Origin: a virus
Reading direction: 5' to 3' (one strand)
IMG/VR virus record: IMGVR_UViG_2806310403_000001
Coordinates: 1,848 to 65,847 of that record
Length of the DNA: 64,000 nt
The position numbers and the translations under genes are program-made. The notes under the pieces are model-generated. The model had not been told where the DNA came from and made no database searches. It was given only the letters and a program-made list of their open reading frames with translations. Position 1 is the first letter of the stretch. Every line of letters begins with the position of its first letter. Positions 22,001 to 56,620 of the stretch are shown piece by piece.

Positions 22001-23139
22001 CTGACCCATTGCGCCTTCTGCGCGACGCTTACAAGATCCGATGGCGGCTGCATCGGCTGGCCCGCGGCAAAAGCTGCAGCGCCCATACCTTGGGGTGTTG
22101 CGGGCTGCTCGGACTCGTCGCCAGATGTGCTGCGGCGCGGGTCTATCATCCCTCGGTATCCCGCCGCGCCCGCACCCATCGCACTGCCGGTTAAGGTGCC
22201 CATCACAATGGCCGCGTCAACGTCCTCATGCCATGGCTTGTCCAGCGCGATGTTCTGCAATATCTGCTCAGAGACGGACTGCGGCAATTCTTCAAGCAGA
22301 CCTTCAGTGATCGCACCTTCAATGACCTGCCTTGAAATGCTCTTGGCTTGTTGCTGCACCAACGGATTAGCTGCCACCGCAGCAGCCTCATCCGCAAACT
22401 GCTTACGCACACCAGGAGAACCCTGCGCCACCATCGTGTCTACATCGCCGATGCCGAGGCGATTAGCCAGTCGTCCAGATGCAGCTCCAATGACACCCGT
22501 CAAAGCGCCCGTTCCAAGCGCTGCGGATGACTGTACAGGCGTCAGCAGGCCGTCATCGGTTTCTTGCCTGATCTGCTCTGCCGCGGCACCCGCTCCTGCC
22601 ACGCCTTCTCCAGCCGCGCCAGCCAGCGCGGCTCCTTTTGCCCCCATCTGACCCAAGCGCGTAGCAGTCATCAGCCCTCGCGCCGCAACACCGCCTGCGC
22701 CCATCGCGCCAAGAGACTCCCCGACTCCTTCGAGAATGATGCTAGGGTTCTCGATTGCAGCCTTCGCTTTACCAACGAACCCTTCGGCTTCGTCGAACTT
22801 TCGATGCGCCTCGCGAGACTGGTCGGACTTGATGTTCTCGTTGACGAACTGTTTCGCTTCCTTGAAACGCAAGCCTGCCTTGTCTTCCAGGAACTTGCCG
22901 GCGCGCCCGCCGGTGGGAATGTCGGCCAGGCCCACGACCAGTTCGGGGACGCTGATTGCGGCATTGAGCGCCGTTCCAGCTACGTCGCGGGCAAAGCCGG
23001 TGATGCCGCGGCCATCTGTTTCGATCCCCATCTCTGAATCTGAGAAGTACCGTTTTTGCGGCGCGGTTGACGGCGTTGAAGCGCCAATTCCCATCTCTTC
23101 ATCGCTGAAGTACTTCTTCGGAGTGTTCTGTTCGCTCAT
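13075..23139 (-). CDS. Giant polyvalent internal-virion/ejection protein (ParB-like, DUF3560-like, N6-adenine DNA methyltransferase, zincin MPTase, MuF-C/PBECR-like, PLxRFG)
   Basis: 3354 aa; motifs LKPTQ...IIDGHH (ParB-like), FFPT..LEPSAG.G and IIMNPPF (MTase), HELLH..EEALAD (zincin), YAPLSRFGRY (PLxRFG). Confidence 0.9.
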   Translation of the reverse strand: MSEQNTPKKYFSDEEMGIGASTPSTAPQKRYFSDSEMGIETDGRGITGFARDVAGTALNAAISVPELVVGLADIPTGGRAGKFLEDKAGLRFKEAKQFVNENIKSDQSREAHRKFDEAEGFVGKAKAAIENPSIILEGVGESLGAMGAGGVAARGLMTATRLGQMGAKGAALAGAAGEGVAGAGAAAEQIRQETDDGLLTPVQSSAALGTGALTGVIGAASGRLANRLGIGDVDTMVAQGSPGVRKQFADEAAAVAANPLVQQQAKSISRQVIEGAITEGLLEELPQSVSEQILQNIALDKPWHEDVDAAIVMGTLTGSAMGAGAAGYRGMIDPRRSTSGDESEQPATPQGMGAAAFAAGQPMQPPSDLVSVAQKAQWVRGWQDAAANALQLEDGNSVQPEAPQGPQGLDVGREDMTAGMTSELGAQPTLDGVDMAPREWDTGALRIADDRPLALPPPDSYTVEGDGFTTQVSRKKSEQMGLSPADGSLSAAAATAVDTGASDQVQQQAALAQAVEAAEDARPKGKQEGRKAAPEGVDAATGEVVGDPALVGMSDEQLSAAFQGAQDRSVRLQLAQELSRRRTEREEAALQAELRDELDAPDAPAGLDSGFARVSEDASAVPANINVSHGTQQPQGVPNGPQADQAIQGDPQPAQARAAQAKPEQGLTDGAALTANPGAQAAAPSSASAQAQGEGSEQRAQRLEIAGAAWTRMPAAERQELAKRIDAKPIVQRNLHSATWERLNGAIQQKLADAISPAAKEQPTDMQQFSAESGTLGVPRSVMPQVPTQSHGGLVRHLNAQGIDHETTMVDAASLKPTQAEYSPSKVQEAKTAIGDRAVIVSNDGHIIDGHHQAVAAAEDGRPVKAIVLDAPVAQALQAVKDSPSAQQMTTPEEPTAPAKKKPRGVLAKMAEAKARLASAESQASQTGATTEEEQKLGAAKADTPESAAELREPRSVPERLRARRSRVAEQERATEQAWTEKNLSERERLMKQAGVAGIFALKHAQKRWANIPQAVREKVAPMLQDDATKAFDAARADALETEQEVETNKRRSPEPAEQISMPQSKTPLTDLHVAMMERVRKGEASVEDFKKSFSQVNSQAEAIKSELAAKTKTQLLESIGPYFRARYANEKKATIIDASYREMIGEYALGQSFSYGIARDSYQKAVQRLVDAVDETRLQQFAQERKQALEESKARMAAQVEAIKNPQTLADFRSLMRHYIERGDTRQEAFMRLEPEQRIRYDELDAESTKAAREKAKANARTLGVGTAGQATTGSIVETKHTRDGYDLFVVQLGERVSREDYDTLNASAKRLGGWYSKFRGNGAVPGFQFKARELAQAFSKLVAGDAADAQAVAQARQDAFADDRSQSAVQRLRTMAQALDERAQQALDAPRKANTDRRARMAASAEAAARADKALAGTMNNLAKAIEDGRVKFLDAVRQKVQVELLARELRNAKDAQIRAKYPSYADQLKHQGEPVDAQTVDFADFPSYAAMRSDLASMARQMLEVDGLKKLGARLEKVADDVTEAYTDWAKENLSGISRFGRGDQLAEYASREAAERAIRKSGLVGRAIVLPVKRGQNRIVLAPGEAMKLGIWQGDGDKRISLSAEFGAELVQALGRRAGNKVAVPWALEASHDKRKRLEGMGIMTASEYRSALREFASLQEAMATPDKIKEMERSMIGRRDDGLDFFPTSEAVVDTMLEAAGIEPGMAVLEPSAGMGHIADAIRDKAGIEPDVVELSGERRDLLEAKGYRVVGDDFTALHPREGFTYGDVFRDTDGTLGVMRGSGGLGSERVGFQPLAADGQPDARNARWVDRDDLVGVEKRGTDSGYDRIIMNPPFSKGRDVEHVRHAYDLLRSGGRVVAIIGEGSFFRRSKAADEFRAWLDERGAVVESLPENSFMDPALPVNTAVNARLVVIEKPAGVDGSDDTAFSQSSQAVSDRMRAAAAIARDRLSAQGKRRIELQRQIEQAVQRIGRHLSVPVEVVATVADAREKYGKPGIPANIRGIAVGGKDVTLIAENLHSLAEAEFVLWHELLHIGLSRKVPKYGAAYSNMMHKLAQRNANLAQVAKEWREAFGAEMVQDLTDRGFGRVQALQRMHQLSVEEALADLAGANPNVGWIKQFLAELQRFIRNMGFSNLADWMEGATNAQALQVIAATRGAVVRQGNVSLFPQFGPAFQPSALAYSRESGPDSSIADAGRRAVGRWKASLEAAGKNAQAPEPSMLTPAVLRSMGAKASKLVLPRTYLRAILSKHPDVPEHVFENLPLLLADPLFIIPHKDGGLRVFVEAKTARSEPIAVGVSIDPGGRIHTVTPIHDHPDSTGQHRMARDVVNAKGRIYAKNNEALGKAIASARASAVAAPATFALRRDSISAASVVTREQIVKGIEAGRYGGDVAYSRASLSEIKTKALDQIHLTLSHPGKVSIWDKTVGTMRNLAERTPAFKPVFETAQRFLDDVSMLANDAADFAPRLVPRVDSLRDLAKKPVSSTDNKAVAKPLFEGTLMWGRDEDGSPALVDDLQKKYANLSAQEKGQMMLRAGRIDAGVLRMWQGLPTDRYESLIDSRFQSQVLKAGIVWSDAELKSLFKLNDQQVSLYREARAAIDRSIDVTARADMLRVLGEEFEALRDVVLDAPTLQDAMDLLTSTLHDEAKAREGESDRLMELYHAVVDRATKARELMDAGYAPLSRFGRYTVDVVDGDGERQYFGMYESKREANLAVIQMRQAFPRATIEQGTMSQEAYKLFSGITPESLELFGNMLGLSEEGGDARDKVFQEYLKLTKNNHSALKRLVHRKGIAGYSEDVGRVLSSFIYSNARQAAGGLNAGGMDKAINDIPKEQGELKDVAMGLRNYIRDPQEEGQAVRGMLFAQYLGGSVASAFVNMTQPFAVTMPWLSQYGGMHKAGAQLARALREMAGKGSYETDLANALKRAEEDGVVSPQEIHQLMAQARGTGSLRSGDGTRMGNARAAAANAWERTKVAWGQPFALAEQFNRRSTFIAAYRIAKDQKMADPAEFARQAVLETQFLYSKANKMRWARGAVGGTLMTFKTYSVSYLELMHRMWTQGGPEGKRAVAWAMAMLLLMGGAGGLPFMEDAEDLIDGAGQLMGYNISTKQWRKKALENVLGKEFAEFVDTGFSGIPGAPIDVSGRLGMGNLLPGTGLLLTKQSRERDLMEVVGPAGDLAARFFGASRKMLTGDLGGAALEMSPTAVRNAAKGADMAVSGMYKDTNGYKVIDTTLTEAISKAAGFQPRSVAQVQEANSFMQRSKSFYTQTSSEIRAQWADALFRKDDAALRRVRARLDAWNSNNPEQPIVIRMPDIWKRVREMGKDRTQRIADTSPKALRQQMQEMAREVG

Positions 23140-23146
23140 GCCCGCC

Positions 23147-23188
23147 AGCATCGCTGGGCGGGGGAGGAACGACAAACCCTATGCAGGG
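23147..23188 (-). promoter_or_regulatory. Late-promoter motif copy 2 (CCCTGCATAGGGTT-N22-GATGCT-N7-ATG)
   Basis: Directly upstream of the giant gene start 23139. Confidence 0.75.
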
Positions 23189-23213
23189 TTGTTGTCAGCT
23201 ACGATCTACACTC

Positions 23214-23480: not shown

Positions 23481-23636
23481 CTCCCTTTGGGCCGTTTTCG
23501 CTACCTGCACAGCCAACGCAGCAAAGAGGGCTGGGTACTTTTGGAAGTGTTCGCCGTTAGCCTGCGCCCAGGCCAGGGCAATCTGACTAGCCAGTATCCC
23601 CGGCTCATCCGTTTGAGTGGTGTTCTGTTCGCTCAT
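23433..23636 (-). CDS. Small hypothetical protein starting MSEQNT (shared with the giant protein)
   Basis: Own copy of the late-promoter motif 35 nt upstream. Confidence 0.5.
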   Translation of the reverse strand: MSEQNTTQTDEPGILASQIALAWAQANGEHFQKYPALFAALAVQVAKTAQRELLEGGNDGGEHSDDH

Positions 23637-23642
23637 GCGGGC

Positions 23643-23684
23643 AGTGTCTTGCCTGCCCGATCAAGTGCCTAACCCTATGCGGGG
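23643..23684 (-). promoter_or_regulatory. Late-promoter motif copy 3 (CCCCGCATAGGGTT-N22-GACACT-N6-ATG)
   Basis: Same motif and spacing. Confidence 0.7.
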
Positions 23685-23702
23685 CTGGCTGGGCCACGAT
23701 GT

Positions 23703-24200
23703 TCATCTCATTAACTTTTTGAAACAGGATGATCTATGGCCACCCCAGCCCTCCAATTCAGTCAGTCGTTGACGCCATGCTTGCTGAGATGACGGGTCCA
23801 CTGGTACACCGGCTTGACCGGAAATACTGACCGCCATCATCGCTTTAGCAGCCATCTCGGAAGCATCGTCGGCGCCGCCTCGGCTCTGCAGTTCAGCCCG
23901 CGCAGTCTTCGCCACCTGGTCGCGTGCCTGCAACTCAGATTGAATCGATCGCTCAAACGATTGCAGAGCTGCAGCCCTTGTTACTTCATCAGGCCAACAA
24001 GCCCTAGTTGCCAAGGCGGCCGCCGCATCCAGCTTCTCGGAGTAAGCCTGCTCGCATAACCGCTTCGATTCAGCGGCCTCCGCAGGCGTGCGACTGCACA
24101 GCCAGTTTCGCAGCCAAACGCGCGGGTTCCACTTGTCAGGGATCGACCAACAAGCCTTCGCTGCGCCGGTGGTGGTGCTTGGAGTGTTCTGTTCAGTCAT
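23703..24200 (-). CDS. Hypothetical protein starting MTEQNTP
   Basis: 165-aa ORF with own promoter-motif copy. Confidence 0.5.
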   Translation of the reverse strand: MTEQNTPSTTTGAAKACWSIPDKWNPRVWLRNWLCSRTPAEAAESKRLCEQAYSEKLDAAAALATRACWPDEVTRAAALQSFERSIQSELQARDQVAKTARAELQSRGGADDASEMAAKAMMAVSISGQAGVPVDPSSQQAWRQRLTELEGWGGHRSSCFKKLMR

Positions 24201-24207
24201 ACCCCCA

Positions 24208-24249
24208 ATGCTGCCGAGATGTGGCGAAATGTCGCAGCCCTATGCAGGG
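24208..24249 (-). promoter_or_regulatory. Late-promoter motif copy 4 (CCCTGCATAGGGCT-N22-CAGCAT-N7-ATG)
   Basis: Same motif and spacing. Confidence 0.65.
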
Positions 24250-24266
24250 CAACTTCAAATGGGCGC

Positions 24267-24290
24267 AAAAAAGCCCGCTCTGGGCGGGCT
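24267..24290 (-). terminator. Rho-independent terminator after the YafO-like gene
   Basis: AGCCCGC-CCAGA-GCGGGCT followed by a T-run on the minus strand. Confidence 0.8.
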
Positions 24291-24738
24291 AACAAGAGCC
24301 AAAAATAAAATCTTCAGCAAGCTTTGCATAGCAGTTCATCCTATTCCTGTCCTCCTTATTTGTCATCATCAACATGTGATGCGCGCCTGGATCATCTGCT
24401 ATATCAATCAAAAGAAACCGATTATCTCCGTCTTGCACGTAGTGCAAGTAACGATCGCTTGTCCTCTTGGACGATGCCTTTTTTTCTTGGTATCGCCTAA
24501 ATTGCAGTTCCCACGCCAACCTTTTATGAGAATCGGTCGGGATAAGATGGCAGTGGCGCAGAACGTTCGGCTGGCCATTTACAGGCGGCTTAACAGTTCC
24601 TGAATCTTTACCAAATACCAGGGACTCGCACTCTCTTGATGGATCTGACTTCCACCAAGTGAACTGCCTGACAAGTTGCGCAACAGCGTCCTTAGACAGC
24701 TTTCCTTTAAGGTCGCTTGAGACCTCCACGAAGAGCAT
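24289..24738 (-). CDS. YafO-family toxin (mRNA interferase)
   Basis: FGKD...LRHCHL...RTSDRYLHYV...FLLIDI..DPGAH matches the YafO family pattern. Confidence 0.75.
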   Translation of the reverse strand: MLFVEVSSDLKGKLSKDAVAQLVRQFTWWKSDPSRECESLVFGKDSGTVKPPVNGQPNVLRHCHLIPTDSHKRLAWELQFRRYQEKKASSKRTSDRYLHYVQDGDNRFLLIDIADDPGAHHMLMMTNKEDRNRMNCYAKLAEDFIFGSC

Positions 24739-24749
24739 AAAATCAGCCT

Positions 24750-25358
24750 TCAGGCGCGACGAACCATGAAGGAGGAAGATGCCCCCTCCATCTCATCCAT
24801 CATGCGCTCCACGCCTAACGCCGCATCTTGCCCTTGTATTTCGCTGATTTGCTCGTGCAAATAGTTAGATGGCACAGTTTCAATAACATTTAAAACTGAT
24901 GCAAATGCATATTTCAACAACTCGATATTTTTTTTAATTATCAAGAGCCCAGGTATTTTTGATTCTAACGACCTGCGAACATCACGACTAGATGAGGAAT
25001 AACGCTGAACAGCACTATCAAATTCATCTTCCAGTTCAAGCAATCTGTCGAATATAGACTCAACGGCTGGCGCAATTGTTTTTCTAGAGGGTTGATCTAG
25101 ATTTATCAGAATAACTTCCAGCTTTCTTGTTTCCCTAACCGCTTCGATCCCTTGTTCCTCAAACCTGCGTTGCACCAATGTTCCTGCCGCCCTCTCGTTG
25201 ACTCCAGATAGGAGCCCCTGCACGTATGCAGACACGGCGGTGGTGACCTCCAGCGCCTGCTCAACAGGCGAAGCCGGTCCATGATCAATCACTGCGCTCA
25301 TTTCTTTGGTCAACTTTGGTAGAGGTTCATGCTCTCTTGGATCGAGCACTAGGTTCAT
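24750..25358 (-). CDS. Alpha-helical protein, probable cognate antitoxin/partner of the YafO-like toxin (start uncertain: 25421/25358/25301)
   Basis: AT-rich ORF ending 11 nt before the toxin start; not YafN/Phd-like in size. Confidence 0.55.
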   Translation of the reverse strand: MNLVLDPREHEPLPKLTKEMSAVIDHGPASPVEQALEVTTAVSAYVQGLLSGVNERAAGTLVQRRFEEQGIEAVRETRKLEVILINLDQPSRKTIAPAVESIFDRLLELEDEFDSAVQRYSSSSRDVRRSLESKIPGLLIIKKNIELLKYAFASVLNVIETVPSNYLHEQISEIQGQDAALGVERMMDEMEGASSSFMVRRA

Positions 25359-25506
25359 GGTAGCAGGCTTGCCAAATCTACGGAACAGAGCTGGTTCATA
25401 TCCGTCAGAATCATGCAACAATTAGTCACATGCAGATATCCCTGTCACCCTTCGACCCCCTTCGCTTCGGCATCCACCTGCCCTGACGCAGGAAAGGCGG
25501 CTGCGA

Positions 25507-25708
25507 TTTCTAAGCTGCCTGTGCGGCAGTGAACCTGCGATCTCGGTTCTGGAGCACGACATCAGTTTTCTGAGCTGCCTACGCGGCAGTGAACGCCCAA
25601 ATGCGCCACGTCGTGGCAGGCTCGCTTTTCTGAGCTGCCTACGCGGCAGTGAACGTGATCTACTTGACCTCATCGAGTCCTTGATGTTTCTGAGCTGCCT
25701 GTGCGGCA
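25507..25708 (-). CRISPR. Orphan type I-F mini-CRISPR array: 3 full 28-nt repeats, 1 5'-truncated repeat, 3 spacers of 32 nt
   Basis: Repeats at 25507-25534, 25567-25594, 25627-25654, 25687-25708 read GTTCACTGCCGC(G/A)(T/C)AGGCAGCT(C/T)AGAAA on minus (Csy4/Cas6f-type); period exactly 60 nt. Confidence 0.95.
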
Positions 25709-25732
25709 ACGGGTTGCGCGTGATAGGCTCTA

Positions 25733-25760
25733 GTTCACTGCCGCACAGGCAGCTCAGAAA
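25733..25760 (+). repeat. Solitary inverted type I-F CRISPR repeat (anti-repeat)
   Basis: GTTCACTGCCGCACAGGCAGCTCAGAAA on plus strand, opposite to the array; abuts the HEPN stop codon. Confidence 0.9.
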
Positions 25761-26150
25761 TCACTGAGACCTCACAATTGCCAAGAGTCTCGCAACATCC
25801 GCCACTGCCTGACGCGCGGCGACATCATCAACGCCGCTCATCTGCAGCAGGTAATCTGCATCAACACGTCTATTCTTAAGCCCTGCCAAGACAAAGCCAA
25901 TCTTACGAGAAGCCCTCTTTTGCTCTGCAGAGCACGCTTGATCAGGGCTCTTCAATCGATCGATCAACCGCTTGTGCGTGCCTCCTGATCCGCCCTCTCT
26001 ACCAACGGCCGGCAATGACGACTCATACTGAATGGAGGCGTGGTAACCACTGTAGTAGGCACGGCTAACACTTGATCGATGCGCTGTCTCTGATGGCTGT
26101 TTCGATAGCTCGATCGCCAAATCCAAGATCGTCTCAGGCGTTGTAGACAT
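25761..26150 (-). CDS. HEPN-domain protein
   Basis: RSSVSRAYYSGYH ... THKRLI ... LKNRRVDADY is the small-HEPN signature. Confidence 0.75.
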   Translation of the reverse strand: MSTTPETILDLAIELSKQPSETAHRSSVSRAYYSGYHASIQYESSLPAVGREGGSGGTHKRLIDRLKSPDQACSAEQKRASRKIGFVLAGLKNRRVDADYLLQMSGVDDVAARQAVADVARLLAIVRSQ

Positions 26151-26909
26151 TCAGTTGATCCCTGCAAAACCGACAGTGAGCCCATCCACATCCAGGCAGC
26201 GCTCGACGATCCTGTCAGCCAACTCCCACGTCATGCTCGACGCTTCATCAACGGATGCAGTCACACGGTACTCGATGTGCAACGCTCCTTGCTGCGTGTC
26301 GTCTTCAGTGCCTGGGGGGATGATGAATTGCATCATCCCGCGCGTGCGGTGATGCCCATGCTTTTCCAGCACAACCCCTGCTTCGTCAATGAGGCGGATG
26401 ATCTGTTCGTCAGATATCTGCAGCCGGTCCAGGATGGAAACGACTTTCATAGCGACTGGAATCATGGTTGCCCCCTTGATGGCGATGTTCTCAGCCTTCG
26501 CCTGTTCTACAAATCTCAACACCGCACGATGAGCACCAACCAGCATGAGCTGTTCAACAGAACGATGCAGTGGCCTAGTTGGGTGTGGAAATACATACCT
26601 TAGCATTTCGTGTGCCTTACTTGCTTGCAAGACCCTGGCGCTGAAGAAAAATTTGCCGTAGCCTGCTTCCTGTGCATGTCCGTTGGCCTCAATGTTGCCA
26701 ATCGTCCGAATGACAGCTTCGCGGTTGCCAAGAAGGCTTTCCAGGTCACAAGTAATCAGATCCGCCGACAAGGTGTCCGTTTTCCTCAATTTCTCGATTC
26801 CCTTGCGGATCAAACGCTCCTCAAACCTACTGACCTCATCCCGTTCCTGCAATGCGGTCAGCCGCTCGGCAAGACGGTCGGTTTCGTTTTGTGGAACAGG
26901 TGAGGACAT
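26151..26909 (-). CDS. Hypothetical protein, partner of the HEPN gene (helical N-half, alpha/beta C-terminus)
   Basis: 252-aa ORF whose stop abuts the HEPN start. Confidence 0.65.
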   Translation of the reverse strand: MSSPVPQNETDRLAERLTALQERDEVSRFEERLIRKGIEKLRKTDTLSADLITCDLESLLGNREAVIRTIGNIEANGHAQEAGYGKFFFSARVLQASKAHEMLRYVFPHPTRPLHRSVEQLMLVGAHRAVLRFVEQAKAENIAIKGATMIPVAMKVVSILDRLQISDEQIIRLIDEAGVVLEKHGHHRTRGMMQFIIPPGTEDDTQQGALHIEYRVTASVDEASSMTWELADRIVERCLDVDGLTVGFAGIN

Positions 26910-26967
26910 TTGAGTTGGGGGCTGAAGGAATGTTCTATCATAAATCATGCCATACACAATTTGTTGC

Positions 26968-27825
26968 ATGAAACGCCTTCTCCTCATAGCTGCTTTTGTC
27001 GCTCCTCTTTCCGGCTTCGCTGGGTCAGGGGCCAACTACGCAGAATGCCTGCTGGAGACGATGCCGGGCACCACCAACGCGCAAGGATTCGGTGCGGGCT
27101 TGCGGCTGTGCCAGCAAGCACACCCGGATGGCTACTTTGTCATCGAGCGTGGATCAGGGAAGGGCCTGTTCGGGCCAAAGTCAGGCGATGCCTGCACGGT
27201 GGCGAAGAGCCGCGGCACAACTTGGGCGCCTGCGGCGGCCGCAATCAATCAGGCTTGTCAGTGCCTGTATAGCGATGGTCGAAGTGCGGAACTGTGCGAC
27301 AACAGCGTACGCACGGCAGCACAACTGGTTGACCCGCTTGAGCACATCAAACGCCACGGCTATGACAATGTCCGCCGCGGCTCCGGCAATGAAACCGGCA
27401 CCATGTACAGCATCAACGAGAAGGCCGAACCGCGCCGCGTCTCAGAGCTGACGCACACAATTTCCCGGCTTGACCAAGCCAAAGGGGCAGCGGAGATTTG
27501 TACCTATTTCGGCAACCAGGGCATGGCCGCGTCGGGTGCAACGTCCTTGCGTTTGGCGGCATCAGGCTACCGTGGCGATGTGATCGCATGCTCATTGCAG
27601 TACACGGCAAAATCGGGAGAAAAAAGTCCTCAGATCATCTTCTATCGTGAAAATGGGAGTGAGATGTACATGTACACCGTCACTCCCATCCGCTACCTCA
27701 CAGATGAAGAGGCAGGTTTCTCCGGTAGCGCTCAATCTGAGCAAGGGAATAGGAGGGCGAATCCGGGCAGTCAGAAGCGGTACTACACAGATGAGGAGAT
27801 GGGGATACCGCCGACGCCGCCTTAA
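26968..27825 (+). CDS. Exported Cys-rich protein (VF_A0006-like four-cysteine domain), moron
   Basis: Signal peptide MKRLLLIAAFVAPLSGFA; ANYAECLL..MPG...C...C...C.CLY. Confidence 0.7.
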   Translation: MKRLLLIAAFVAPLSGFAGSGANYAECLLETMPGTTNAQGFGAGLRLCQQAHPDGYFVIERGSGKGLFGPKSGDACTVAKSRGTTWAPAAAAINQACQCLYSDGRSAELCDNSVRTAAQLVDPLEHIKRHGYDNVRRGSGNETGTMYSINEKAEPRRVSELTHTISRLDQAKGAAEICTYFGNQGMAASGATSLRLAASGYRGDVIACSLQYTAKSGEKSPQIIFYRENGSEMYMYTVTPIRYLTDEEAGFSGSAQSEQGNRRANPGSQKRYYTDEEMGIPPTPP

Positions 27826-46580: not shown

Positions 46581-46746
46581 TCCACCCTTCACATCGCTAA
46601 GAGCGCGCTCGCACACTGCCAAGACTCCGTGGCGCGCATTCAGGCATTGAAAAGTAGTCGAAAAATTAACATCCAAAAACCAACGGTGCTTTTTTGATAT
46701 CGGAAATTGGTGGCAACTAGTGGGAATTGGTGTGACAATCGCGCGC

Positions 46747-47325
46747 ATGACGAACCCATCACTGTTCAACGAGAAGCGCACAGCTCAAGCTGCAGCCTTC
46801 CTGCTGCACCGTGCTGGCGGTCGCCTGCCTCTATTGAAGCTCATGAAGCTGATGTATCTGGCAGAACGCGAGTCACTGAAGGAATATGGTGAACCCATCA
46901 CCGGTGACAAACTCGTCGCGATGCCGCACGGCCCAGTGCTGTCAATCACGTACAACTTGATGAACGGCGCCCTTGATAGCCAACAAGGCGGTTGGGAGTC
47001 TTGGATGGAAGATCGAGCCGGCCACGATGTTGCTTTGCGTGACGAAAGCAGAATCCGCTCGCCTGAACAGGATCTGCTTGAGCTCAGCCAAAGTGACTTG
47101 GATGTGCTGCAGGGCGTTTGGGAGAAGTTCGGGCACATGAGCAAGTGGGACATTCGGGACTACACCCATCATGGCGGTTGTCCAGAATGGGAAGACCCCA
47201 ACGGCTCAAGCCGTCCTATCCCTATGACAACGCTTTTCAAGGCGCTGGGGTATTCTGAAGAAGGTGTCCGCTCGGCCATCGAGCACTTGCGCGAGCGCGA
47301 GAATCTTGGGCATGCCTTCGGCTGA
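46747..47325 (+). CDS. Panacea/SocA-like DUF4065 antitoxin
   Basis: LKLMKLMYLAERESL..YGEPITGD..AMPHGPV; H..CPEW. Confidence 0.82.
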   Translation: MTNPSLFNEKRTAQAAAFLLHRAGGRLPLLKLMKLMYLAERESLKEYGEPITGDKLVAMPHGPVLSITYNLMNGALDSQQGGWESWMEDRAGHDVALRDESRIRSPEQDLLELSQSDLDVLQGVWEKFGHMSKWDIRDYTHHGGCPEWEDPNGSSRPIPMTTLFKALGYSEEGVRSAIEHLRERENLGHAFG

Positions 47326-53469: not shown

Positions 53470-54927
53470 ATGACCAACAAACAAGCACCAGCAGCACCCA
53501 AAGTGCCGAGTGGCTGGCCGACCGACGATGATGTCCGAGACGCTTACAAAGACGCGTTCGACCTCACGCCGGCCGGTAGCATTTGGGCGAACCTAGGCGT
53601 ACTGGCAGAAGCACTGCGCCAACGTTTTCCAATCGCAGTAGCAGAGGCGGCGCCGCAGCCTGCGGGAGAGTCGGCCAATGTCGTCTACCGCTGGCGTGCG
53701 ATGGACAACTCGGGATTCTGCTACGGCGGCAATCCGCCTGACGATCTGCCGCAGAGCGCATGCCTGACCGCCTACTACCGACAACCCGACCAATTTCGCG
53801 CGGCCCTGTTCGAGATCAGCGCCACTGGCAACATGACGGCCACGCCGAAGCAATTCGCCCGGCATCTGCAAAAGATCGCGCGGGATGCACTGGCCGGCGC
53901 TGCTGTAGAGCGGCCTGCGGGAGAGTATCCGCCGCTGCCCGACCTGAGCGCAGACAGCGAAATAATGCTGGAGATCGTGCACTTGCACGAAGTGCCCAAC
54001 AGCAACGTCGCACGAATCCACTTCGCCGCAGAACGAGGAATCAGCCATTTGCTGCGCGCCTACGTCGATGCAGACCGCGCAGCGCGTGGGCAGGCTCACC
54101 CCCCGAGCGGCGGCGCGCTCCCCACTTGGGAAGAGGTGCGCCACTGGCTTGCGCTGTTTGTTGCGGGAGCAACCAGTAAGGCTCCAAAAGACTGGTACAA
54201 CGCGCTGGACCAAATTTTCTGCGACGACGCGCCGCTGGGCGCATGGCGCAGGGCGATGGATGCTGGGCAAGCTCAACCTGTGGGCGGGGATGATGGGTTG
54301 CCAATCGAGCTGCGGGGCATCCAAGAGACGGTGGCCGAGGGTCGCGGCGTCTGGCGCTCTTGCTCAGGTTGCCACGAACTGGACGAAGGCCACGATACCG
54401 GCCCTCGTAGCAAAGTGTTCGGCTGCGCCCTCGGCGTTGGCTGCTCTGAATGCGGCGGCATCGGTGCAGTCTGGGATACGACCGACTACGGCGCGATGGG
54501 CGATGCGCTGGCCGACAGCATGGCCAAGCCCCAACCATCCGGTAGCGGCGCTGATGGTCTGGATGCAGCGGTGGACAAAGCGTGGTCGCGGTTCCAGTCG
54601 GCTATTGCGCCGACCGACGATGAACTGGAGGAGTTCGCAGCGCGCTACGCGGATGAGCAGGGCTGCATCCATGGTGACTCGCATGCGGACATGGCCAGGG
54701 CGCTACTCGACGAGTTTGCAAAACGGCATCTGTTTGCATCCCCCGACGACACTCAGCCCCAGCCAGCCGGGAATGCCGGAGAGTTGTTGAGCGATGCGGC
54801 CATTGAAACGCTGGCAAAGCAGTACGACTGCCACAGCGCGCCAGGGTTTAAGGGGTTTGCACAGGAAGTAGCTCGTCGTGCCGCTCTCGCTGCAAAGCCA
54901 GCCGCTCACCAGGTGGAACAGAAATGA
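53470..54927 (+). CDS. Mosaic Ea22-like early protein
   Basis: Modules separated by QPAG/QPVG/QPSG linkers; includes a CxxC...CxxC module. Confidence 0.6.
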   Translation: MTNKQAPAAPKVPSGWPTDDDVRDAYKDAFDLTPAGSIWANLGVLAEALRQRFPIAVAEAAPQPAGESANVVYRWRAMDNSGFCYGGNPPDDLPQSACLTAYYRQPDQFRAALFEISATGNMTATPKQFARHLQKIARDALAGAAVERPAGEYPPLPDLSADSEIMLEIVHLHEVPNSNVARIHFAAERGISHLLRAYVDADRAARGQAHPPSGGALPTWEEVRHWLALFVAGATSKAPKDWYNALDQIFCDDAPLGAWRRAMDAGQAQPVGGDDGLPIELRGIQETVAEGRGVWRSCSGCHELDEGHDTGPRSKVFGCALGVGCSECGGIGAVWDTTDYGAMGDALADSMAKPQPSGSGADGLDAAVDKAWSRFQSAIAPTDDELEEFAARYADEQGCIHGDSHADMARALLDEFAKRHLFASPDDTQPQPAGNAGELLSDAAIETLAKQYDCHSAPGFKGFAQEVARRAALAAKPAAHQVEQK

Positions 54928-55679
54928 TCAGGGCCGTCGTTCCGGTAAGTGGCGGCAAAGATAGCCAAGCCGCACTCAAACTGGCTGTTGGTCAATTCGG
55001 CGTTGAGAACATCGTTGGTTTGTTCTGCGACACGCAGAACGAACACCCGATCACATATGCACACATCGAGCGCCTACGCACTCTCTACGGGGCCCTGCGG
55101 ATCGACACAGTATGCGCAGGGTCCGTTGAAGAAAAGTGCATCAAGTACGGACGCTTCCCCGGCGGCGGTGCACGGTTCTGCACCGACGAACTCAAGATCG
55201 TGCCGACGAAGAAGTATTGCAAGGCTCTTGCCGAGTCTCTGGGGCACGGCTTTGAAGTCTGGTACGGCATGCGCTCGAAAGAAAGCCCGGAGCGCCAGCG
55301 CCGATATGCGGGCAAGGTCTGCGACGAGTTGTATGCGCCGCATGAAGTCCTGCCGAGCAAGTACCCAAAGTACCTCGCCGCGCTGGGCGTGATGTTCCGG
55401 CTCGCAGTGCTGGACTGGACCGACGCGGACGTAATGGCATTCCTCGAGGGCCAGCACAACCCGCTCTACGACGCTGGATTTCCCCGTGTCGGCTGCTTCC
55501 CCTGTGGCGCGTCGGGGGACCGATGGAAGGAGAAAGCCTTCCAGCACGACGATTTTGGCAAGCAGCAATACATCAGGGTCCAAGACATCGGCCGCCGCAT
55601 TGGCAAGTCGATCTGGACATCTAAGGGCGGTCAGGCTCGGAATCAAGAATTCGAAGGATGCAATCTATGCGAGATTTGA
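54924..55679 (+). CDS. Phosphoadenosine phosphosulfate reductase-family protein
   Basis: PP-loop VSGGKDS, FCTDELKIVP, G.RS.ES..R, NPLY..GF.RVGCFPC. Confidence 0.85.
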   Translation: MIRAVVPVSGGKDSQAALKLAVGQFGVENIVGLFCDTQNEHPITYAHIERLRTLYGALRIDTVCAGSVEEKCIKYGRFPGGGARFCTDELKIVPTKKYCKALAESLGHGFEVWYGMRSKESPERQRRYAGKVCDELYAPHEVLPSKYPKYLAALGVMFRLAVLDWTDADVMAFLEGQHNPLYDAGFPRVGCFPCGASGDRWKEKAFQHDDFGKQQYIRVQDIGRRIGKSIWTSKGGQARNQEFEGCNLCEI

Positions 55680-56620
55680 AAAACGACACTCCACAGGTGG
55701 AAGGAGGGGCAGAGCCGATCAAGATCATGCGCTGGAACCCGCTTCCAGGCCTCGGCGGCATGAACCCAGCAGCGAACGGGCTGTACGTGCGCTACGAGGA
55801 TCACGCCGCCGCTCTCGCCGCCCAGGGCCAGGAGGTCCAGATCAATCAAGCTGTCGACAAGGCATGGGATCACTTCGAGGCCGTGATGGACAAGGGCACG
55901 TACTTGCCGCCACCTGGCATCCATGCCGCAGTCCACTACGCAGGATTCCTGCGCCGCTTGGCACACAAGCAAACAGAGCCGACGAAGGCCGGAGCTATCG
56001 CCAATGCGGCCAGCATGATCGATGTGCTGCTGCAGGAGACGCGCCGGCTGCATCGGGAGCTGATCGACGCCCAGGGCCGGGAGGCAGAGCCGAGACCCTT
56101 CGACTTCGCGGCCCACCTAGCCCGCCAAGCCGAATTCAGTGCCCGCACCTTCGGCCCTGGTCAGCGCACGCAAGGCGTGTGCGACCACATCCGCAAAGAG
56201 TTGCGCGAAATTGAAGCCGCCCCCGATGACTTGTCCGAGTGGATCGACGTTGCCATCCTCGCCCTCGACGGCGCGTGGCGCATCGGGGCTACGCCCACCG
56301 AAATCATCGCGGCGATGGTCGCCAAGCAGACCAAGAACGAAGGCCGCCGTTGGCCCGATTGGCACACGGCTGACCCCAGCAAGGCCATCGAGCACGACCG
56401 GGGCGACGAACACTTGCCCAGCGCCCAGGCTGATGCGGACAAGCGGGATGCGCAGCGGTATCGCTGGCTGCGCGACGGAACCATCGATGAGGATGGAAAC
56501 ATCAACGACGAAATCCACGTCGCGGTTGATAGCCCGGAATGGCCCAATCAGTGGGCGCTTGTTGCTCAAGACCTTGACGCCGCTATCGACGCCGCCCTCA
56601 AGAAAGGCGGTGCAGCATGA
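55667..56620 (+). CDS. dATP/dGTP pyrophosphohydrolase (DUF550, MazG-like) domain protein
   Basis: FSARTFGPG..GV.DHI.KEL.E...P.DLSEW.DV.ILALDG..R; R.WPDW. Confidence 0.82.
   Translation: MRDLKNDTPQVEGGAEPIKIMRWNPLPGLGGMNPAANGLYVRYEDHAAALAAQGQEVQINQAVDKAWDHFEAVMDKGTYLPPPGIHAAVHYAGFLRRLAHKQTEPTKAGAIANAASMIDVLLQETRRLHRELIDAQGREAEPRPFDFAAHLARQAEFSARTFGPGQRTQGVCDHIRKELREIEAAPDDLSEWIDVAILALDGAWRIGATPTEIIAAMVAKQTKNEGRRWPDWHTADPSKAIEHDRGDEHLPSAQADADKRDAQRYRWLRDGTIDEDGNINDEIHVAVDSPEWPNQWALVAQDLDAAIDAALKKGGAA

Follow-up and report, generated by a model that had tools for sequence, protein, structure and literature searches.

Probable template-switch scar at the head of a prophage type I-F CRISPR array

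Prophage setting of the repeat region

The repeat region analyzed here lies within a prophage. The window, by which we mean the whole 64,000-nt stretch of DNA that was analyzed (G000:C1:966828-1030827), codes for a P22-like portal, a capsid protein (PF13252), an SU10 adaptor, terminase, NinG, RecT, YqaJ and RdgC. The repeats occupy an accessory slot of lower GC content (51.5% at 24-26 kb vs ~60%), with genes for 736 and 3366 aa on either side. Read on the minus strand, this slot starts with an unknown gene of ~250 aa (26151..26909, start uncertain), whose family was not recognized. Directly downstream of it is a HEPN-like gene (25761..26150, 129 aa), followed by the repeat region, an unknown gene of ~200-220 aa (24750..25421), a YafO-family toxin gene (24289-24738; PF13957, E 9e-9) and a predicted intrinsic terminator (24290-24272), the two together spanning 24272..24738.

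The HEPN-like protein is full length, as its typical relatives have 124-133 residues. A profile search matched it to HEPN proteins in the PDB (E 9e-5 and 8e-4), but also to UBR5 (E 2e-4); it was assigned to PHROG 5176 and had no Pfam match. The pair formed by the ~250-aa gene and the HEPN-like gene was detected in six of the 63 loci coding for HEPN homologs, and single-sequence queries with the HEPN-like and adaptor genes revealed no direct relatives in viral contigs. No Cas families were found among the 71 window proteins scanned.

The host has a type I-F system of its own on contig C3, including cas1 and cas6f. Host repeats start with GTGACC and the repeats of the prophage array with GTTCAC; the 22-nt core is identical in both. 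The host cas2/3-csy1 gap (L003, G000:C3:258700-259030), outside the window, contains a CreTA-like module made up of a minus-strand truncated repeat, a 26-nt guide and a degenerate second repeat. The guide matches C3:258845-258870 at 21 of 26 positions (mismatches 6, 9, 12, 18 and 26) with a CC PAM; a TTGACT-17-TAAAAT promoter and a 9-codon mini-ORF with a strong SD follow shortly downstream. Six codons of this mini-ORF specify arginine, three of them being CGA/CGG/AGG, and judging by its sequence it is a candidate arginine-codon CreT, in contrast to the proline codons of P. aeruginosa CreT. Far from the cas locus, a degenerate I-F repeat pair 58 nt apart (L004, G000:C3:701064-701143) is a possible orphan regulatory mini-array. 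Host spacer 16 matches the host chromosome at G000:C3:173425 with four mismatches.

Several other features of the window were recorded. Genes for a Panacea/SocA antitoxin, a PAPS-reductase-domain protein and a dATP/dGTP pyrophosphohydrolase are found at 46720-47325 and 54924-56620. A gene-start module is present in three copies (23120-23191, 23617-23687 and 24181-24252); its ORFs begin with MSEQNT or MTEQNT, their upstream DNA is common with the start of the 3366-aa gene, and the copies may be recombination joints for accessory genes. Positions 23024-23058 and 27772-27806 form an inverted 35-nt match (80%) encoding the common peptide Y(F/Y)(S/T)D(E/S)EMGI, which belongs to the N-terminus of the giant protein and to the C-terminus of a 285-aa plus-strand ORF. 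A 16-nt inverted pair (25411-25426/26956-26971) is at the chance level.

The three-spacer array and the inverted repeat pair

The array is of type I-F, reads on the minus strand with a 60-nt period and includes three unique 32-nt spacers. Its first repeat, psiR1 (25687..25708), is truncated, keeping the last 22 nt and missing GTTCAC. It is followed by spacer S1 (25655..25686), repeat R2 (25627..25654), spacer S2 (25595..25626), repeat R3 (25567..25594), spacer S3 (25535..25566) and the terminal repeat R4 (25507..25534). On the other side of psiR1, 24 nt away, is a full I-F repeat in the orientation opposite to the array (R+, the 'anti-repeat'; 25733..25760, plus strand; Rfam CRISPR-DR4, 47.5 bits), abutted by the TGA stop codon of the HEPN-like gene. 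With up to three mismatches allowed, the 22-mer core has five copies in the window vs 0.00 expected.

An earlier note on this DNA had described psiR1 and R+ as the arms of a perfect 22-bp hairpin, and on re-check all its coordinates for both arms and their separations were correct. The arms are complementary at 22 of 22 positions and extend by 0 nt both outward and inward, ending exactly at the 3′ end of the repeat and just past GGCA; the arm-to-arm distance is 30 nt. RNA folding agreed with the hairpin, giving z-scores of -8.6 (minus strand) and -7.0 (plus strand), with none of 200 shuffles as good. The length of the hairpin is ordinary (this genome has 27 perfect inverted repeats of 18-23 bp with loops of up to 60 nt); its CRISPR-repeat composition is the unusual part.

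We consider it extremely unlikely that the pair was produced by an assembly or amplification fold-back. A 44-kb Logan contig (depth 594), assembled separately by a second assembler, spans positions 24500-27000 in one piece, without joints or other letters, which argues against a fold-back, and the only other Logan piece placed on the region is the host C3 repeat. A fold-back would also have duplicated S1 after R+, where no S1 copy is present, and both flanking genes are unique and intact. On the other hand, this Logan run may itself have provided the DNA analyzed here, rare variants are dropped from such contigs, so that a minority orientation could still exist, and the only look-alike that we found (contig L083, see below) is itself a fold-back.

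The truncated repeat psiR1 keeps the stem and the 8-nt handle, with U.G in place of the basal C-G pair; a literature search gave no report on whether Cas6f tolerates U.G at this position of the stem. Truncation at the identical base is also seen in the creA-like repeat of the host, and the 22-nt core of psiR1 is that of the host repeat. A changed repeat head (at least two changes in the first six bases) was present in 9 of 25 short viral arrays vs 4 of 36 long ones, both counts including duplicates, and in CreA of P. aeruginosa first repeats that are degenerate do undergo processing (10.64898/2026.06.02.729485). Since the stem and the handle are kept, and since truncated first repeats are common in working elements, psiR1 may be cuttable or functional.

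We also looked for targets of the spacers. There were none in the prophage's own genome at up to seven mismatches, and a partial-match scan gave chance-level seeds only. BLAST searches against phages and plasmids returned either repeat matches or short chance matches, and IMG/VR contained no match to degenerate patterns made for S1 and S3. Among the matches listed, there was no spacer match for 30 related phage records or genomes and no S1-S3 match for the host cas locus; in the fetched loci the best had 9-10 mismatches. As a positive control, the partial-match scan did pick up the creA target of the host (21/26, CC PAM).

The linker as an inverted leader end

What is new here is the recognition, through a leader profile, that the 24-nt linker between psiR1 and R+ (25709..25732, plus strand) is the leader-proximal end of a type I-F leader and points in the direction opposite to the array. 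In plus-strand orientation, 18 of its 24 positions are identical to those at the end of the leader in L072, an unrelated viral I-F array. The profile, built from 20 dereplicated leader ends with the L072 locus left out, scores the linker at 13.5 bits in the forward direction and at -22.3 when reversed. Under this profile the linker is the top of the 127,952 24-mers of the window and outscores 475 of 475 spacer ends. Moreover, 11 of the 20 leaders have CA immediately 5′ of their final 24 nt, and the left arm also ends with CA at the junction. By these sequence features, R+ plus the linker is a leader-first-repeat junction directed away from the array, with R+ as a presumed inverted copy of the ancestral first repeat. 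The 30-bp loop between the two 22-bp arms (25709..25738, plus strand) corresponds to the inverted segment, that is, the leader end together with GTTCAC.

Three bases before R+ the linker contains a predicted extended -10-like element, TG-n-TAGGCT (25721..25729, plus strand). At the linker's offset, TAnnnT occurs in 6 of 23 leaders vs 3 of 506 spacer ends. The sigma-70 scan did not flag the element, and no mapped start site at an I-F leader-proximal -10 was found in the literature; from its motif and position, we predict a weak plus-strand promoter facing away from the array. An extended -10-like motif, TG-n-TACGCT, precedes the first repeat by 2-3 nt in five viral I-F arrays (L021, L050, L062, L072 and L066), three of which (L021, L050 and L062) have a repeat head that is degenerate over its first six bases. 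In many I-F arrays the transcript may begin within the first repeat.

Adaptation-competent I-F arrays have IHF sites and inverted-repeat motifs over ~150 bp of leader and a first repeat starting with 5′-GT (10.1101/2023.05.26.542337). Here the leader remnant is just 24 nt long and inverted, and psiR1 lacks GTTCAC. Upstream of psiR1 there is neither an IHF-like nor a leader-proximal ATCAA motif, both of which are present in the host leader, and upstream of R+ the ATCAA motif is absent as well. Because the IHF and inverted-repeat leader motifs are lost, the array is predicted to be frozen, without spacer acquisition.

Occurrence of the inverted geometry elsewhere

A search of related prophages for the same inverted geometry, proposed in the earlier note, did not reveal it as a conserved feature. 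We scanned sequence collections with exact inverted patterns (arm gaps of ~8-40 nt) that recover the window itself. There were 0 matches in IMG/VR, 0 in a genome collection of 185,579 species and one in metagenomes. The latter, contig L083, was rejected as a second case, because its bases 53-79 recur in reverse complement as the opening 27 nt, which makes it a fold-back where the contig begins. A looser pattern run over 400 genomes of the order gave 0 true matches, the two extra matches being either same-orientation repeats or a spacer that matched via the repeat's internal palindrome. Repeats in both orientations within ~1.5 kb were seen in none of the 62 viral I-F array loci, an I-F repeat in none of the 63 HEPN-homolog loci and a DNA-level ortholog of the cassette in none of the 60 relatives searched.

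Related prophages have an I-F array beside a relative of the 736-aa gene in 3 of 29 loci (some of them duplicates). These three loci, L115 and L120 (the same array) and L119, come from Simplicispira and have full leaders and no anti-repeat. The arrays at L119:3560-5100 and L120:8280-8850 are cas-less, contain 26 and 10 repeats, respectively, and have a near-identical full leader. This likeness of the leaders, combined with 0 spacers in common between the 9- and 25-spacer arrays, suggests that prophage arrays gain spacers through host Cas1. L120/L115 also have an additional lone repeat ~4.9 kb from the array.

Origin of the inverted pair

We favor, as the probable though by no means certain origin of the inverted pair, a single replication template switch that flipped the leader-repeat junction of a prophage I-F array, leaving the present layout as its scar. 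The inversion probably crippled the array. Read along the array, the HEPN-like stop is followed by a reversed 22-nt core, by reversed GTTCAC and by a reversed leader end, after which come the 22-nt core in array orientation and S1 onward. This is the layout of a '1-3-4-2' template-switch product, and one such switch on an ordinary leader-repeat junction reproduces it exactly. The ancestor would have been leader-R1-S1-R2-S2-R3-S3-R4. Copying would have left the template at the HEPN-like stop (point 1) and continued for 52 nt on the other strand, beginning where R1 ends and running into the leader (points 2 to 3). A 2-nt CA/TG microhomology would then have brought it back to the original template at base 7 of R1 (point 4). 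The remaining (distal) leader would have been lost in the same switch, and no selected function is part of this scheme.

The template switch is supported by the plus orientation of the leader-end linker, the CA placement in leaders (11/20) and the arms (22/22) that end at repeat-defined points. It is further supported by the lack, ahead of psiR1, of the IHF-like and ATCAA motifs that the host leader has, by the singleton pattern across the collections and by the related Simplicispira arrays without an anti-repeat. Against it, the first switch would have had only weak microhomology to rely on, and plain switching does not explain why it should land exactly on a stop codon and a repeat end at once. 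That psiR1 may well function, as truncated first repeats do in other working elements, also counts against it. Neither an ancestral allele nor a sister strain was found; the event is reconstructed rather than observed.

The clean boundary between the repeat and TCA would be accounted for by a head-to-head fusion, an origin that we regard as possible but unlikely. A CA(A)-microhomology deletion would have joined the first repeat of a minus-strand array or creA-type element to a plus-strand leader end; the plus-strand array would then have been stripped of all that followed the first repeat, perhaps because its first spacer recombined with the HEPN-like gene or because Cas1 joined a DNA end to the repeat boundary. 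Cas1 joins DNA ends at repeat boundaries, and therefore a Cas1-assisted or spacer-recombination origin stays a rival. The host locus has the same polarity, in that the main leader and a minus-strand truncated repeat of the same 22-nt core diverge from each other and both have CAA at the corresponding position, and the related-prophage arrays run opposite to the late genes, as R+ does. However, the fusion requires at least two events. The prophage unit, unlike creA, has 32-nt spacers and full repeats, these repeats start with GTTCAC and those of the host with GTGACC, and a search beyond R+ for a degenerate second repeat was negative.

If the 30-bp loop at 25709-25738 were flipped, the native leader-repeat junction would be restored. 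This raises the idea of a reversible micro-switch, in which template switching, without a recombinase, would invert the loop that lies between the two perfect 22-bp arms. In the state assembled here the promoter faces away and R1 is truncated; in the other state the leader end, the -10 element and a complete first repeat would stand before S1, and the array would be on. Inversion of the spacer between inverted repeats is a known outcome of template switching (PMC5453318), and the -10-like element does sit at a conserved offset. Nevertheless, we find such a switch quite improbable: the Logan contigs show one orientation and no joints (though, as noted, contigs drop rare variants), no invertase families were detected among the 71 window proteins scanned, and the geometry was not met elsewhere. 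It is also improbable that flipping would work as an ON/OFF device, with a silent array and antisense RNA into the HEPN-like gene in one state, the native promoter and repeat in the other, and the anti-repeat picking the masked guide.

Predicted transcripts and pairing

Expression of the array is predicted to depend on read-through from the upstream two-gene operon, with the ~250-aa gene upstream of the HEPN-like gene as the likely source; no terminator is predicted between this operon and the array. The host Cas6f/Csy proteins, given the identical repeat core, could process the read-through RNA, and at best some of the three guides would survive for use against competing phages.

Folding predicted the claimed duplex on either strand. 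Pairing of the anti-repeat with other repeats, likewise put forward earlier, is borne out by the predicted duplex energies, -55.5 kcal/mol for R4 (the best partner), -52.4 for R2/R3 and -46.1 for psiR1. Masking of the first Cas6f site was upheld in part. While only psiR1 has been transcribed, the anti-repeat is predicted to pair with it at P=1.00, whereas on the full-length RNA the predicted equilibrium partner is R4 (P=1.00), leaving the psiR1 stem free (P=0.97). According to these models, one repeat is likely masked per read-through transcript, the first during synthesis and the last at equilibrium; which one is masked in cells would depend on kinetics and Cas6f binding.

The strength of the predicted duplex is one reason to think of a cis anti-repeat maintained by selection, which would mask a Cas6f site, give the HEPN-like mRNA a stable hairpin cap or provide an RNase III site, and in this way rank or limit the guides. 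In addition, the three positions that differ from R2-R4 all allow G.U pairing on the minus strand (chance ~1 in 8), the unpaired GUGAAC could be a toehold onto full repeats, and type II-A leader-repeat hairpins behave in such a manner (PMC12080349). Yet the anti-repeat is unconserved in every collection searched, with no covariation demonstrable, and its origin is accounted for without selection. Masking of R4, moreover, would remove the 3′ cut of a real spacer and not that of an extraneous guide. We therefore view selection for such a function as very unlikely. The proposal of a dedicated tracr-like or regulatory anti-repeat was not sustained, as the linker is an inverted leader end, the geometry was not found again as a conserved feature in the collections searched and the predicted equilibrium partner is R4. 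Because of the identity of the linker, the anti-repeat appears instead to be the array's own flipped leader-repeat junction.

The predicted -10-like element shortly before R+ and the host I-F system with the same repeat core speak for the other alternative raised in the earlier note. In that case plus-strand transcription would yield a solitary repeat unit, acting as a Racr-like decoy, or a Cas6f-processed RNA antisense to the HEPN-like gene. We hold this role to be very improbable indeed. Inhibition by RacrIF1 resides in the RNA upstream of the cut, and the handle-only product is non-inhibitory (PMC10651486). Here the Racr-like reading fits poorly, since the RNA upstream of the cut is either very short, at a few nucleotides, or held within the hairpin. 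Once released, the 5′ handle would by prediction base-pair with the sequence that follows it, and the plus strand has neither a second repeat nor a terminator. An antisense transcript into the HEPN-like gene might still be made because of the weak plus-strand -10-like element, albeit one that the sigma-70 scan passed over.

Significance of the locus

If the inverted pair is a scar, it would be a clean natural example of a CRISPR anti-repeat that arose in a single event, when a leader-repeat junction was copied in inverted form, and would show how prophage arrays lose their leader and freeze. The locus also offers a natural test case for whether processing by Cas6f is blocked by an anti-repeat in cis, and at which repeat. 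Flipping of the loop in vivo, if true, would raise its importance greatly, because no phase-variable or anti-repeat-gated type I-F array was found in the literature.

Comparison with known systems

We found no report of an inverted leader or an anti-repeat in I-F arrays in the literature. A tracrRNA has a class 2 effector nearby and is a recurrent, separately structured RNA with 3′ hairpins or a terminator. A tracrRNA-like identity was rejected here: no class 2 effector was detected among the 71 window proteins scanned, the Rfam match corresponds to the repeat alone, no terminator is predicted and the geometry was not found again in the collections scanned.

The four-point model and its type 1-3-4-2 short template switch were described by Loytynoja and Goldman (PMC5453318), whose event statistics refer to human-chimp DNA. 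Unlike their cases, in which the ancestor is known, the present one concerns a CRISPR leader-repeat junction without an ancestral allele.

As in CreA/CreR and viral Cracr, the first repeat is 5′-degenerate with the stem and the 8-nt handle kept. Guides of CreA/CreR/Cracr are 17-27 nt long and match cas or creT promoters in part, next to a CC PAM (PMC10097628; 10.64898/2026.06.02.729485; 10.1101/2024.10.29.618823), viral Cracr guides being mostly 17-21 nt (10.1101/2024.10.29.618823). We rejected such an identity for the prophage array, as its spacers are 32 nt long and no match to a host cas promoter was present among the matches listed.

The lone I-F repeat on one prophage strand downstream of a predicted promoter resembles RacrIF1, the inhibitory part of which lies upstream of the Cas6f cut (PMC10651486). 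Unlike RacrIF1, R+ has no appreciable upstream RNA and stands head-to-head with an array. A Racr unit has its promoter at a sufficient distance from the repeat to yield an RNA that binds Cas7f ahead of the cut. R+ would make a poor Racr, since the predicted -10 is 3 nt from the repeat and longer plus-strand transcripts are predicted to fold into the 22-bp hairpin.

Virus-borne CRISPR mini-arrays serve in inter-virus competition (PMC11656645; bioRxiv 10.1101/2023.03.03.530964). The present array is similarly short, cas-less and prophage-borne, with repeats compatible with the host I-F system and full-length spacers. It differs from them in the inverted leader end and first repeat, in the lack of a proximal promoter facing the array and in that none of its three spacers has a target found.

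In type II-A systems, with variants in II-C, a leader-repeat hairpin blocks extraneous crRNA (PMC12080349). As there, upstream RNA would pair in cis with a repeat. According to the same source, the II-A hairpin is recurrent, imperfect and directed at a spacer-less repeat, whereas here the copy is perfect, known from a single case, belongs to a Cas6f system and would mask a repeat needed for a real spacer. On balance, by analogy, the inverted-head array appears to behave most like a viral mini-array combined with an accidental version of the II-A leader-repeat hairpin.
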